Source: Promethearchaeota archaeon Loki_b31 | GTDB lineage: Archaea; Asgardarchaeota; Lokiarchaeia; Sigyniarchaeales; SOKP01 | Assembly (NCBI GenBank): GCA_005222975.1 | Contig: NJBI01000085.1 | Coordinates: 1 to 10,649, forward strand | DNA length: 10,649 bases | Direction of reading: 5' to 3' | Shown here: in pieces, positions 828 through 10,291 of the stretch | Layout: every line of letters starts with the position of its first letter | Numbering within the stretch: the first letter of the stretch is position 1 | Notes under the pieces: model-generated | Databases searched by the model: none | Told to the model about the DNA's origin: nothing | The model's input: only the letters and a program-made list of their open reading frames with translations | Made by a program: the position numbers and the translations under genes

Positions 828-873
828 AATATACTCAACCTAAATTATCCTATATAATATTTCTACCTTCGTG

Positions 874-926
874 AATATAAAGGTATAATTATTCTCAAAA
901 AATGAATTAAAATTTACCTTTATAAA
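874..926. promoter_or_regulatory. Back-to-back divergent TATA boxes forming a 10-bp perfect inverted repeat
   Basis: TATAAAGGTA (876-885) and TACCTTTATA (915-924) are exact reverse complements. They read as TACC-TTTATA(TT) on the minus strand toward the 827 gene and TACC-TTTATA(AA) on the plus strand toward the 1035 gene. Confidence 0.5.
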
Positions 927-1034
927 GTAACTGATAAATTTGGATAAACACGTCAATATTTAGAATTTATTTTTATAAGAGCAGTAAAGGAACTAAATGA
1001 ATTACTTTTTATTTACAAAAATTATTTTATTTGT

Positions 1035-1790
1035 ATGGAACTAGAAGAAAAAATTGAATTAGCCGCAACTTGGATTTTCGAATCAAAAAACTTAGTAATA
1101 TTTACTGGTGCCGGGATCAGCACAGATAGCGGTCTACCGGATTATCGTGGGCCAGATGGGGTATGGACTCGTCGCGACAAGGGTCTTCCACCTCCAAAAT
1201 CTCCTCCTTGGGACCAAGTTCGACCGAATCAAGGACATCACGCAATTGTGGAACTGTTAAAGATGGGGAAACTTGATTACCTAATTTCTCAGAATGTAGA
1301 TGGACTCCACGCGAAATCTGGGATTCCTTTCGAAAAACTTGCAGAACTCCACGGTAATTTATATTTCATGCAATGTTTGAATTGTGGAAAAAAATTAACA
1401 TTTGAAGATGCGGGATGGGACAAAAAGGAATGGGGTCAAGGATATAGGACGGGAAATGTTCGAAAAAATCAACCAAAATGTCCCAATTGTGAAGGGAGGC
1501 TTATTTCAAGTATAGTTAACTTTGGAGATTCTTTACCAATGGACGAACTCGAAGAATCAATGAGAAGATCTGAAAAAGCGGATGTATTTTTTGTAATTGG
1601 CTCATCTTTAGTTGTAACACCGGCGGCAAGTATGCCTGGAATTGCGTGGAGAAATGGCGCAAAATTAATAATTTTAAATATGGGCGAAACTCCTTACGAC
1701 GACGAAGCTGACTTGAGATTTTTTGAGCAGATTGGAGAAGTTCTTCCTAATATTGTTGATAGAGTAAAAGAAATGGCAAATAAAAATTAG
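1035..1790 (+). CDS. cobB: NAD-dependent protein deacylase, Sir2/sirtuin family, class IV (SIRT6/SIRT7)-like architecture
   Basis: Motifs [30 protein letters not shown], catalytic ELHGN, Zn-binding CLNC...CPNC, FGD, IGSSLVV and LNMGETPYD. cobB is only the generic prokaryotic sirtuin symbol. Confidence 0.95.
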   Translation: [251 protein letters not shown]

Positions 1791-3275: not shown

Positions 3276-4946
3276 TTATTTTAAAATTCCATAAAATTTT
3301 TTATTTCTATCGTATTCTTTTAGAACTTTTCTCCCTTCTTTGTTTGAAAGAGAAAGCGTTATGTTGCTAGAACGACTCAATGACCCTGTAAAGACTTCTT
3401 GATCATCAGCAAAAACAACAATATTTCTACTGGCAAATTCCGGATTTGCTTTTAATATTACTTTTTGCTTTTTTATTTCAACATCTAACTCAATTCGCGT
3501 CTCTTTTCTATCTTTAGTAATTTGTCGCCCTTTATAATGCTCTTTAGTTTTAAAAGAATCCTTAAGGCCAATAGGATTTATTGGATTAATTACTATATCT
3601 TGACCGAACGAATAAATTTCGTAAGCAAGACGATCCGTTTTAAAATCTCTAACTTCCACAACGGGTCTTGCCAAATCTTTGTCTCTAAATCCATGAGGTA
3701 CTTTAACGGTCATTTTGAGGGTTAGAACAGCAGAGATGTCTCCTCCTTCAATAAATATAATAGTATCTATTATTGACGGGAGCATTCCAAGCTCTATTCG
3801 ACCAATGAACCGCTGTATTGCGTCGATGGCTGAGGAAGAATGAACTACACCTACCATTCCAACGCCCGATAATCGAAAATCAGAATAAATCTTAAAATCT
3901 TCAAAGACACGAACTTCGTCGAAAATTGTATAATCTGGTCTAACTAAAAGAAGGATATCAGCAGAATTTTCAAGGCTTCCTTCTAGTTTGGTGTATTGCG
4001 TAATTTCGGGTCTAACTTGTAAATCTCGGACACTTTCTAAAGTTTTTACTACTTTATTTTGTTCTAAATAAAAATTTGCTAATGCAGCTGAAAATGTGCT
4101 CTTACCTGCTCCGGGAGCTCCAGCTACTAAAATACCTTCTGCTTTTTCTAATCTTTTATGTAATCGAGCATCAATTGAATAATCTGATAATGTGAGATTA
4201 ACAAGCGGATGGACAGCAGTAATTTCAACAACGTTAGAAAACGGAGGGCGCGTTATTACTATTCTAAATTCTCGTAATTGAGCAACGACGGCACCAAACT
4301 TCTCTATTTCCACGAACGAGCGCTCGTCCTCCCTTACCATTTCAATTATTTCCATTGCGATATCTTCTATGTCTTTTGCTGTTAAGGGTTCCTCACTTAT
4401 TTTTTGTAAGTACCAGTTTCCAGGACTTCCTTTCTTAGCGTAAGGGGGTAGATCTTGTTTAAGATGGACGCTCATGGTGGTGTCATCAAAAAAATCTAGT
4501 AATCTAAGCGAAGAAGGCTCGATTTTTCTAGGAAATGCTTTTTCTTTTACATACATAACATCTAAGCCTTCAAAAACACCAACATCGCCTTGAATTCGAT
4601 CTGCCGTGATTAAAGTCGCATTAATTTTTAAGGCACTTTCTCTAATTAGAGCATCTAACTCTCCTCCCGGTGCCATTTTTATTTCATCTCTTATAGGGCG
4701 TTTACCGCTTATATGAAGTACCACTTTATTTTCATTATGGAGCTTTCGTAATTCTTTTAATACATTTAAGCCATAAAACCCAATTTCTCTCTGGATATTT
4801 GTCCGGTATTCCACTTCTGCGACAACAACATTTGAAATGTAAACTTCTGGCTTTTCTCCTAATTCTCCGTCTTCTATTAGATTTAATATAAGGCCGTTAA
4901 AGATTACGGAAGTATCGCAGGCAAATTTATTTGGCATATTAATCAT
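3276..4946 (-). CDS. PINc/VapC-family ATPase (archaeal PINA-like: PIN domain + P-loop ATPase); start may be ATG 4937
   Basis: PIN acidic residues in CDTSV, VAEVE, ELDAL and ITAD. Family motif FFDDTTMSVHLK, Walker A GAPGAGKST, LLVRPDYTIFDE (Walker B), GMVGVVH, DLARPVVEVRDF. Confidence 0.93.
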   Translation of the reverse strand: MINMPNKFACDTSVIFNGLILNLIEDGELGEKPEVYISNVVVAEVEYRTNIQREIGFYGLNVLKELRKLHNENKVVLHISGKRPIRDEIKMAPGGELDALIRESALKINATLITADRIQGDVGVFEGLDVMYVKEKAFPRKIEPSSLRLLDFFDDTTMSVHLKQDLPPYAKKGSPGNWYLQKISEEPLTAKDIEDIAMEIIEMVREDERSFVEIEKFGAVVAQLREFRIVITRPPFSNVVEITAVHPLVNLTLSDYSIDARLHKRLEKAEGILVAGAPGAGKSTFSAALANFYLEQNKVVKTLESVRDLQVRPEITQYTKLEGSLENSADILLLVRPDYTIFDEVRVFEDFKIYSDFRLSGVGMVGVVHSSSAIDAIQRFIGRIELGMLPSIIDTIIFIEGGDISAVLTLKMTVKVPHGFRDKDLARPVVEVRDFKTDRLAYEIYSFGQDIVINPINPIGLKDSFKTKEHYKGRQITKDRKETRIELDVEIKKQKVILKANPEFASRNIVVFADDQEVFTGSLSRSSNITLSLSNKEGRKVLKEYDRNKKFYGILK

Positions 4947-5544
4947 CGAGAGTTTCTATTTTATTAATAATTTCGAATTTATTCACGCTATAATATATCG
5001 GTTTACTCAATCTATCAACAGTAGCAACAATCAGGTCTTTACGAGAGCTCATTGCTACGCGAGACATTTTATCCAATTCTTTCAAATCTATTGGATACCC
5101 TTCAAATACGGGGTAAATCAAGAACTTAGCGGAATCCTTTTCGAAGTCAGCCCCTCGCTTATACACTCGAAAGTCAATGCCTTCTCCATATCCTGCTCGA
5201 ACAATATATCCCCTTTTTCGCAAATCCATATAAATAATATATTTTTGCCACAGACGATCGTCAAACCGGCTGAAGTACTCTAGTAAACCCTCAAAATCGT
5301 ATAGAGCATTTTTCTTATCATTTTCAAGATACAGTAAAATCCGATTTCTTTCGCATAAGAGTAATACTTCAATAGGCTCTAAGACTAAAATATCTTCAGC
5401 GTCATCTTTTTTTATGAGCGTACCAATATAAGAGTTATTATAAAATTCTTCAATGCACTCCTTGTCTGAAATTATAACCTTATCGTCCTCAATAATTCCT
5501 TCAAATTGGACTTTTTCAGCTTTTTCATTAGTTTTTTCGTTCAT
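4939..5544 (-). CDS. endA: tRNA-splicing endonuclease family protein, probably a non-catalytic (structural, beta-type) subunit
   Basis: LEPIEVLLL in the N-domain; IYMDLRKRGYIVRAG..GIDFRVY, RVAMSSRK and IVATVD...IYY in the C-domain. The catalytic Tyr and His positions are Glu and Ser. Confidence 0.88.
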   Translation of the reverse strand: MNEKTNEKAEKVQFEGIIEDDKVIISDKECIEEFYNNSYIGTLIKKDDAEDILVLEPIEVLLLCERNRILLYLENDKKNALYDFEGLLEYFSRFDDRLWQKYIIYMDLRKRGYIVRAGYGEGIDFRVYKRGADFEKDSAKFLIYPVFEGYPIDLKELDKMSRVAMSSRKDLIVATVDRLSKPIYYSVNKFEIINKIETLDD

Positions 5545-8899: not shown

Positions 8900-10291
8900 C
8901 TATTTGTCAGGATCGGATAATACCTTTCTAAACGGTCGCAAAAATTCTTGCATCATATTTATTTTGTTCCTTAATTTATCAATTTTCATTAATGGAATTA
9001 ATTTTTCGTTCAATTTCTTTGCGCGCTCGTCATTTTGTGGAAAAGTATCATATACTCCATGCGTTTTGTAATATTCGTGATCGGCTAAAAACACAAACCG
9101 GTTCCTTCCATAAACATCATCTCTAAACATTTTCATAGCTGCCTCCCCGAGAAAAGTTCGTGGTCCTATATAATTAGCTACAGAAAAATCGATTGCTTGT
9201 TTTGCAAAATTATACAACAACGCATCAATATCATCGGATTCACCGAATTCATCCGTAATAAAATTTAGGTAATTCGAGTCTTGGTACTCTACATGTGCCT
9301 GCAACATCTCTTTTAGGTTAGGAATCTGGCTAATTGGGCCTGAGACGATATGTCCTAATTGTTTTCCGATTATAGTAGGTGTATGATTATTAAAAAAGGC
9401 TCTGTCATAGACTAATTTCCATTTTGACGATAAATAACGGTCTTTAATAGTCCCGGCAAATATTAAAATATCTGCTTTCATGACCTTATTAGTCCAAAAA
9501 TCTGTAAAACCATCTTTGTCTTTATATATGCATTCGTGATTGTATCCACATTTAGCACATCCTATACATGGTCCTTTTATATCGATATCATAAATGTTTA
9601 TTAGTTTGACATTGTTAGCAAATGATTCTCTAAACCTATTTACCATTTTTCCTAAATTTGTAGATTCGCTCGTGTCCTCTGAAACAATTAATACTTTCTG
9701 CCCTTTAGTATCTATTTTTTCTTCTTTTGTTGTTGAACTCTGAGGAACATAATCGAACTTTCTATGGTTTAAAGGCTGAAATTGTCTAGTTGTAGGAAAA
9801 TTATTTTCGATAGTCTCAAAAAACTTTTCAGTAAAAATCAACCAACGGTGTCTTCTTTTTGGATATAGCAAATCCCAACTATCAGCAGCAAAATATCCAA
9901 AAAATTTCATGCCTAGATCGTCACAAATTGCGCGAATATAATTTTGAGCAGTATGATCGTAAAAATGTATTGAAGTTGAGAGAGACATCACGTATTTATC
10001 CTTAAAAAATGATTCTGCTTCCTTTTCGAAGATGAGTTCAATAAAACGCTTATATTGGGAACATACTAGCATAACATATACAGGAAACCCCCAAATTATA
10101 CCGTCTGAATCTCCTACTTGTTTTAAGACATTTTTAAATCTTTCCTCATTTTTCTCAATCTTCTTAATAGTTTGTGCGATGTTTATTATGTTATATTCGT
10201 GTTCTGGATGTTTTTTCTTTATATATAAGATATATTGCATAGTGACGCTCTCAGCGCCTTTTGGGCTTCCATTTAAAATAGTTATTTTCAT
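8900..10291 (-). CDS. NAD(P)H-dependent oxidoreductase with two flavodoxin-like domains (FMN reductase / iron-sulfur flavoprotein-like)
   Basis: Domain 1 has ILNGSPKGAESVT, DGIIWGFPVY and QYKRFIE. Domain 2 has CIGCAKCGYNHEC (CX2CX2CX5C), KDGF, ADILIFAG and KWKLVYDR. Confidence 0.88.
   Translation of the reverse strand: MKITILNGSPKGAESVTMQYILYIKKKHPEHEYNIINIAQTIKKIEKNEERFKNVLKQVGDSDGIIWGFPVYVMLVCSQYKRFIELIFEKEAESFFKDKYVMSLSTSIHFYDHTAQNYIRAICDDLGMKFFGYFAADSWDLLYPKRRHRWLIFTEKFFETIENNFPTTRQFQPLNHRKFDYVPQSSTTKEEKIDTKGQKVLIVSEDTSESTNLGKMVNRFRESFANNVKLINIYDIDIKGPCIGCAKCGYNHECIYKDKDGFTDFWTNKVMKADILIFAGTIKDRYLSSKWKLVYDRAFFNNHTPTIIGKQLGHIVSGPISQIPNLKEMLQAHVEYQDSNYLNFITDEFGESDDIDALLYNFAKQAIDFSVANYIGPRTFLGEAAMKMFRDDVYGRNRFVFLADHEYYKTHGVYDTFPQNDERAKKLNEKLIPLMKIDKLRNKINMMQEFLRPFRKVLSDPDK

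Follow-up and report, generated by a model that had tools for sequence, protein, structure and literature searches.

A link between Asgard sirtuins and the eukaryotic class IV (SIRT6/SIRT7) enzymes was made in 2022 by Grau-Bove et al., who described a well-supported sister relation between SIRT7 and a sirtuin clade of Asgard archaea (Heimdall and Loki; bioRxiv 10.1101/2021.11.30.470311). The enzymology of the family was published in 2026, in a preprint on Loki-B35, which has three SIR2 paralogs (bioRxiv 10.64898/2026.07.02.735847). One of them, LoSIR2b, deacetylated Loki histone-tail peptides in a reaction that requires nicotinamide adenine dinucleotide (NAD), was the most effective of the paralogs on Loki histone tails, and reached a deacetylase activity comparable to that of SIRT1 in a fluorogenic assay. 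In the same work, the LoSIR2b model was compared with the SIRT6-nucleosome structure, and Loki and Hod SIR2 enzymes restored silencing in yeast; the supplementary sequences show that LoSIR2b is a short-loop sirtuin and that LoSIR2a and LoSIR2c are long-loop sirtuins. Here we describe a sirtuin gene at positions 1035-1790 of a 10,649-nucleotide contig from Promethearchaeota archaeon Loki_b31 (NJBI01000085.1; the whole contig is termed the window). It is a real class IV-like sirtuin gene, of the same kind as the clade of Grau-Bove et al. in Lokiarchaeota and Heimdallarchaeota, and in view of these two publications it belongs to an already known kind. Its product, a short-loop sirtuin and the counterpart of LoSIR2b, is very probably a compact NAD+-dependent deacylase of protein lysines, most likely active in chromatin-protein deacetylation.

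The gene for LoSIR2b (GNAMCCOK_01652) was located in the genome of Ca. Lokiarchaeum ossiferum B35 (G138), where its product is exactly the supplement sequence. This genome belongs to the same order as our host but to another family. The two proteins are of similar length (253 amino acids for LoSIR2b and 251 for the window protein) and share 59% identity over 247 residues (E 2e-105), the other 41% of residues being different. Both have an 18-19-residue loop, the QNVD...ELHGN spacing, the CxxC...CxxC zinc motif and NFGD, and each is the sole short-loop copy of its genome beside long-loop paralogs. The assayed enzyme is LoSIR2b, whereas the window protein is known from its sequence and a structural model.

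Motifs and predicted structure

The open reading frame (ORF) of the sirtuin is intact and starts with ATG. Pfam SIR2 (PF02146) matched its product with an E-value of 1.2e-34 (120 bits, cut-off 24), accompanied by a weak match to Zn_ribbon_3. All 7 sirtuin models of NCBIfam stayed below their own cut-offs for this protein, including the CobB model NF040867, which scored 207.6 bits against a cut-off of 320 and aligned in two stretches. The traits of the SIR2 superfamily are all present, i.e., a Rossmann NAD-binding core (GAGxS, QNxD), a catalytic His and a Cys4 zinc module. The features of the gene are as follows (A1 and A2 are alignments).

1035..1790, + strand: coding sequence, stop codon included, of a short-loop (class IV-like, SIR2b-type) sirtuin of 251 amino acids, based on the ORF list, Pfam, and the matches to SIRT6 and LoSIR2b.
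1107..1121, + strand: GAGIS, NAD-binding Rossmann motif, residues 25-29, aligned to GAGIS of SIRT6; G25, G27 and S29 invariant in A1 and A2.
1170..1223, + strand: 18-residue link (residues 46-63) that replaces the helical module, based on the gapless SIRT6 alignment, the coil of the model and the GAG-to-QN spacing.
1290..1301, + strand: QNVD, motif of the NAD ribose and nicotinamide pocket, residues 86-89, aligned to QNVD of SIRT6; Q86, N87 and D89 invariant.
1350..1352, + strand: His106 in ELHGN, catalytic general base, invariant in A1 and A2 and aligned with SIRT6.
1374..1490, + strand: zinc-ribbon module with Cys114, Cys117, Cys149 and Cys152 (CxxC...CxxC), based on the four Cys, invariant in A2, on the weak Zn_ribbon_3 match and on the strands of the model.
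1512..1529, + strand: IVNFGD, canonical FGE-type substrate-binding loop, residues 160-165, based on the SIRT6 alignment and the conservation of F163 (invariant in A1, nearly invariant in A2).

His106 lies 19 residues past Asn87, a spacing identical in the aligned SIRT6, and an insert of about 30 residues separates the two zinc Cys pairs. Other landmarks are a 24-residue block at residues 85-108, a 10-residue stretch at 189-198, and NMGETPYD at 215-222.

The hallmark of class IV, a short loop replacing the helical module, is found in the window protein. RGPDGVWT occupies residues 38-45 and is followed by the 18-residue link (46-63) and Pro64; the human SIRT6 link in the same place also has 18 residues. 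The distance between the GAG and QN motifs is 60 residues, within the range of other short-loop relatives (54-69, mostly 59-62), compared to 76-83 in long-loop relatives. When solved structures were searched by sequence, human SIRT6 supplied the best relatives, in ten variants (E 2.6e-51 to 1.2e-50), aligned in a single stretch over residues 2-241 of the window protein; the HMMER alignment ran without gaps from residue 2 to about 120, loop included. Like the Pfam SIR2 match, this similarity lies far beyond chance. Sir2Af2 and Sir2Tm came next (E about 1e-42 to 3e-42), each with its match broken into two stretches by a helical module that the window protein lacks. The remaining solved sirtuins were more distant: SIRT7 (3e-30), SIRT5 (about 1e-23 to 3e-23), SIRT3 (about 1e-19 to 2e-19) and SIRT1 (2e-17).

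An AlphaFold2 model built from a 54-sequence alignment had a mean predicted local distance difference test score (pLDDT) of 95.2 and a predicted template modelling score (pTM) of 0.90. Between the Rossmann strand and helix 66-76, this model contains one short helix (43-48) and coil, and thus predicts that the helical module is missing. In a Foldseek comparison with the PDB, the top 32 matches were all human SIRT6, with template modelling (TM) scores by query of 0.81-0.85 at 37-38% identity, followed by Sir2Af2 and Sir2Tm at 0.68-0.75. By PDB E-values and by fold, the window protein is therefore nearer to SIRT6/7 than to any of classes I, II, III and U. An earlier note, made from the letters alone, had described a SIRT6/7-type sirtuin in an archaeal, probably Asgard, genome; it had counted 18 residues between RGPDGVWT and the conserved Pro and described SIRT6 as having the same loop length and a near-identical second block. 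The count is exact, the SIRT6 strings that it gave are essentially right according to the HMMER alignment, the host is an Asgard metagenome-assembled genome (MAG) of the Lokiarchaeia type, and the class assignment agrees with sequence, fold and the tree described below. The superposition that the note had proposed, on SIRT6 versus Sir2Af2, favored SIRT6.

With Sir2Af2 and Sir2Tm (long-loop prokaryotic enzymes; PDB 1MA3, 1YC5), the window protein shares the catalytic core and 33-36% identity in the C-terminal half, but these enzymes possess the helical module and superpose less well on the model. Human SIRT6 (class IV; PDB 3K35, 3PKI, 8G57), the best fold match, is 37-39% identical, yet several of its own traits are missing. 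The window protein spans about residues 30 to 268 of SIRT6 and lacks both the N-terminal extension and the C-terminal tail of that 355-residue protein. Moreover, SIRT6 has ILDWED in the substrate loop where the window protein has IVNFGD, and its third and fourth zinc Cys are split by an insert where the window protein has a plain CxxC (CPNC). Together with a position outside the monophyletic eukaryotic clade (support 100/100) that holds the SIRT6-type proteins, these differences exclude a SIRT6 ortholog in the narrow sense.

They also bear on whether the enzyme acts as SIRT6 does, that is, as a weak deacetylase that mainly removes long-chain fatty acyl groups or transfers mono-ADP-ribose. SIRT6 is the closest solved structure, many homologs carry the automatic Joint Genome Institute (JGI) label 'mono-ADP-ribosyltransferase sirtuin 6', and the next closest structure, Sir2Af2, was solved with a bound histone peptide that carries a myristoyl group (4twj) and reportedly favors myristoyl removal (PMC10652111). 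However, the N-terminal extension is absent, NFGD replaces DWED, and LoSIR2b was comparable to SIRT1 as a deacetylase in the fluorogenic assay, so that we regard such a narrow SIRT6-like action as improbable.

Relatives and phylogeny

We surveyed 400 genomes of the phylum, with family labels (f1, etc.) assigned from kinship, the window lying in f1. About 180 of these genomes, many of them complete, have a sirtuin match at E <= 1e-60, which argues for a working gene. Such matches were present in nearly all of f1 and in many genomes of f3, f4, f5, f7, f13, f16, f18, f21 and f28. Several families, the large f31 included, gave weak matches only (E 1e-21 to 1e-45), the level of long-loop paralogs. 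Identity to the window protein was 65-96% inside f1 and 54-65% beyond it, every match of at least 65% falling in the window's own family. A conservation of 70-80% across Hod-, Hermod-, Thor- and Odinarchaeota, suggested by the names of the records, was considered and rejected: five checked MAGs so labelled (L018, L022, L027, L056 and L064) are, by coordinates, the genomes G260, G173, G172, G199 and G198, all in f1. G260 even falls in the window's own genus, and the submitters' phylum labels disagree with genome kinship. Several f1 genomes carry two short-loop sirtuins in tandem or within about 1 kb or less, with copies 67-76% identical to the window protein (G175:C323, G226:C29, G182:C79, G170:C9, G217:C18, G205:C5, G216:C89, G194:C9, G221:C271 and G214:C190); one copy each in G170 and G214 contains stop codons.

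Among 1.84 billion protein representatives, 16,493 relatives of the window sirtuin were retrieved. After its own cluster came a Heimdallarchaeota protein and prokaryote-size short-loop proteins, then mostly long proteins matching in a single stretch at 36-46% identity, the named members of which came from eukaryotes: fungi and fish, both with SIRT6-type proteins, a lycophyte, Pelomyxa and Hemimastix. A profile search seeded with the prokaryote-size short-loop proteins identified the bacterial carriers: it returned many proteins of 230-240 amino acids, some of them named from Thermodesulfobacteriota/Deltaproteobacteria MAGs and lying on contigs of up to 4.7 Mb. These bacterial short-loop sirtuins (e.g., P0320, P0323 and P0333) share 53-57% identity with the window protein, a level also seen in Asgard orthologs of other families; they have a GAG-to-QN distance of 59-61, fall in the same clade, and have an insert between the zinc Cys pairs that is shorter by about 15-20 residues. 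The nearest proteins by features in a protein-atlas search likewise include bacterial clusters (Myxococcota, Thermodesulfobacteriota and Actinomycetota). The CDD model cd01410 (SIRT7/class 4) is described as covering several bacterial homologs. The earlier note had cautioned that similar proteins may occur in bacteria, and the megabase-size bacterial contigs confirm this. Three relatives, P0121 (408 amino acids), P0129 (537) and P0130 (481), have short-loop sirtuin domains behind N-terminal extensions of 160-290 residues; P0130 is labelled 'vacuolar-type H+-ATPase subunit H' by JGI.

A maximum-likelihood tree was inferred with IQ-TREE (LG+C20+F+G4 with posterior mean site frequencies, PMSF; 63 rows, 250 columns), leaving out the helical-module columns, which were filled in fewer than 30% of rows. 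The outgroup consisted of eight long-loop representatives and the three long-loop paralogs of the host genome, while eukaryotic classes I-III and verified SIRT7 lay outside the sampling; the SIRT7 candidates P0143 and P0149 (both with the SQNCDGLH motif), P0153 (SIRT7-like architecture) and P0132 all scored better against SIRT6 than against SIRT7. Supports are given as ultrafast bootstrap/Shimodaira-Hasegawa-like approximate likelihood ratio test.

Short-loop clade, eukaryotes included, against the long-loop representatives and the three paralogs: 100/99.
Eukaryotic SIRT6-type clade, monophyletic, on a long stem of 0.78: 100/100.
Main Asgard clade: 94/91.
The window protein's own group inside the Asgard clade: 100/100.
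Bacterial (Thermodesulfobacteriota/Deltaproteobacteria) clade: 96/99.

A Heimdall-containing group and several other lineages also belong to the short-loop clade, in which all meet in a polytomy. In the sense of Frye, by which class IV proteins form a clade with eukaryotic SIRT6/7, the window protein is a class IV sirtuin (100/99), with SIRT6-type proteins standing for the eukaryotes in this tree. The earlier note had named two placements that would speak against its reading, one with class III/U and one nested among bacteria, with a patchy spread in archaea; the tree gave neither, the first as judged against the sampled long-loop, class-U-like outgroup.

The tree also bears on a convergent shortening of the loop in a class U/III archaeal sirtuin, by which the likeness to SIRT6/7 would be superficial. 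The C-terminal half looks prokaryote-like (NFGD, CxxC...CxxC), and P0127 (273 amino acids) has an insert of helical-module length yet is placed within the short-loop clade, indicating that loop length can change. Nevertheless, the clade was recovered at 100/99 even though the helical-module columns had been dropped, and the similarity to SIRT6 extends beyond the loop over the full length; a convergent deletion is hence very improbable.

The sister group of the eukaryotic SIRT6-type clade is another matter. Whereas Grau-Bove et al. placed SIRT7 next to the Asgard clade, our sample (without verified SIRT7) yields monophyletic eukaryotic sequences and leaves their sister group as a polytomy, and a quick tree that took in 14 more Asgard sequences from genomes, LoSIR2b among them, still had a polytomous backbone. 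Approximately unbiased (AU) tests rejected neither a grouping of the main Asgard clade with eukaryotes (delta log-likelihood 14.9, p 0.253) nor one of the bacterial clade with eukaryotes (4.3, p 0.373); both are allowed, and an Asgard or a bacterial sister group is neither shown nor excluded. The suggestion of the earlier note that the protein is a candidate precursor of the SIRT6/7 lineage is weakened by these two topologies, by the polytomy, by the close bacterial homologs and by the missing SIRT6-specific features. The idea has been published before. In its full form, eukaryotic SIRT6/7 would descend directly and vertically from the Asgard SIR2b-type sirtuin, the window gene included, which would have deacetylated histone tails before eukaryogenesis, and the bacterial copies would have been passed on later by Asgard archaea to neighbours that reduce sulfate or live in syntrophy; we hold this combined scenario to be rather doubtful.

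Activity and candidate substrates

By analogy with the conserved sirtuin core, NAD+ would be bound by the Rossmann domain (GAGIS, QNVD, GSS and N215), and an acyl-lysine would pass along the NFGD loop into the cleft that separates this domain from the Cys4 zinc module. His106 would act as general base, and nicotinamide and O-acyl-ADP-ribose would leave as products. The small domain would be a zinc ribbon alone, because the 18-residue loop replaces the helical module, as in SIRT6. We infer the activity and its substrates, whereas fold, motifs, subfamily placement and similarity to LoSIR2b are demonstrated.

The host genome (3.5 Mb in 99 contigs, 92% complete) is, by kinship, an Asgard MAG that shares its order with Ca. 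Lokiarchaeum ossiferum, and the closest homologs of the window protein lie in Asgard MAGs. The genome holds four further SIR2 loci, three of which are intact (266, 259 and 250 amino acids) and have the long helical module. The fifth sirtuin locus, L004 (G000:C30:9154-9588, - strand), encodes a 156-residue C-terminal part from ITQNIDNLH on, with a TAG ahead, and probably represents a long-loop paralog that is truncated or broken. Candidate substrates are four histone-fold genes (70-77 amino acids) and three Alba genes. The product of one histone gene, L089 (G000:C17:31223-31399, + strand), begins MAKKAPAKKSDS, a short lysine-rich N-terminal tail, and the other three histones have little or no tail.

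Since the window gene is the sole short-loop copy of its genome and the counterpart of LoSIR2b, its likeliest activity is the deacetylation of chromatin proteins; by analogy with LoSIR2b, these would be histone N-terminal tails and possibly Alba. Other, non-chromatin proteins are probably substrates as well. The earlier note had thought of archaeal histones, an idea that is consistent with the published LoSIR2b assays.

Several observations weigh against this reading. Bacteria, which have no histones, carry very similar enzymes (53-57% identity), so the short-loop subfamily is not tied to histones. At 59% identity, the substrate preference of LoSIR2b may differ from that of the window protein, and the quick tree places the two in separate, weakly supported groups of the short-loop clade (99%). 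In addition, the host histones are short open frames of 70-77 amino acids without the long tails of the LoSIR2b assays.

Some of these points fit a general housekeeping or metabolic deacylase with a CobB-like role, acting for instance on acyl-CoA synthetases, whose SIRT6-like architecture would have no chromatin meaning; the activity of LoSIR2b on histone tails would then reflect broad specificity. The short-loop proteins of histone-less bacteria and the short tails, at most, of the host histones agree with such a role, as do the CobB and deacylase models of NCBIfam, which are the best family matches although below threshold, and neighbouring genes that are kept only within one family and have no chromatin link. 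On the other hand, the three long-loop CobB-like paralogs of the host could fill this role, and LoSIR2b was the best of its paralogs on Loki histone tails. We consider the CobB-like role a serious alternative with a real, though less than even, chance of being correct; it is compatible with chromatin-protein deacetylation rather than exclusive of it.

Gene neighbourhood and meaning of the family

The genes surrounding the sirtuin were compared over the 80 best genome loci, all Asgard (family f1 in the five loci checked). The features of the window that concern us here are the following.

435-827, - strand: 130-residue ORF, divergent from the sirtuin over a 207-bp AT-rich spacer and without a family in Pfam or NCBIfam.
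828..1034, no strand assigned: the AT-rich spacer shared by these two genes, a possible promoter as judged by reading the sequence.
1830-2663, + strand: 277-residue ORF, 40 nt past the sirtuin stop, without an NCBIfam family and with one weak match, below cut-off, to the prenyltransferase alpha-alpha toroid (E 0.0017).
3276-4946, - strand: PIN and PilT-like ATPase (NCBIfam PRK13764, 654 bits; the model for the PINA Holliday-junction branch-migration ATPase is below cut-off).
4939-5544, - strand: tRNA-splicing endonuclease EndA, overlapping the PIN and PilT-like ATPase gene by 8 nt.
8900-10291, - strand: 463-residue protein with a flavodoxin-like flavin mononucleotide (FMN)-reductase domain at residues 1-140 and a long C-terminal part without Pfam or NCBIfam match.

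In f1, the gene order is a PHP-like gene, the divergent 130-residue ORF, the sirtuin, a variable insert, a convergent PINA-type ATPase and EndA. The ATPase accompanies the sirtuin in 72 of the 80 loci, the PHP-like gene in 62, EndA in 47, and the 130-residue ORF in 42, in the same place and orientation and at 33-92% identity; no copy of this ORF lies near the sirtuin in other families. The variable insert of the window comprises the 277-residue ORF and an ACT-domain gene. The former occurs in 20/80 related loci, directly downstream of the sirtuin in 17 (three of them fragments), and appears to be an insert that varies in the space separating the sirtuin from the PINA gene.

In 14 loci of six other Asgard families, none of the window neighbours was found at 5 kb or less from the sirtuin; these loci include that of L. 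ossiferum, where LoSIR2b is flanked by an ArsR-like gene and a 239-residue gene without family. The arrangement, confined to the window's own family where checked, therefore carries no functional signal, and we rejected the gene neighbours as a guide to function. TATA-like runs are visible in the spacer about 20-30 nt upstream of the sirtuin ATG, and the spacer may be a promoter for an mRNA with a short leader or none. Scanning the locus for sigma-70 promoters and terminators, an approach unsuited to archaea, gave nothing above shuffled sequences.

What this locus mainly adds is a caution. Bacterial relatives of the window protein are as close as those of other Asgard families, and on statistical grounds the eukaryotic clade may have had an Asgard or a bacterial donor; an identity of 70-80% across 'Hod/Hermod/Thor/Odin' MAGs largely reflects record labels. 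The window gene adds one more sound case to the Asgard counterparts of SIRT6/7-type sirtuins and offers a possible extra enzyme for comparative assays. In eukaryotes these sirtuins are chromatin regulators, and a prokaryotic source for them bears on the origin of histone-based regulation.

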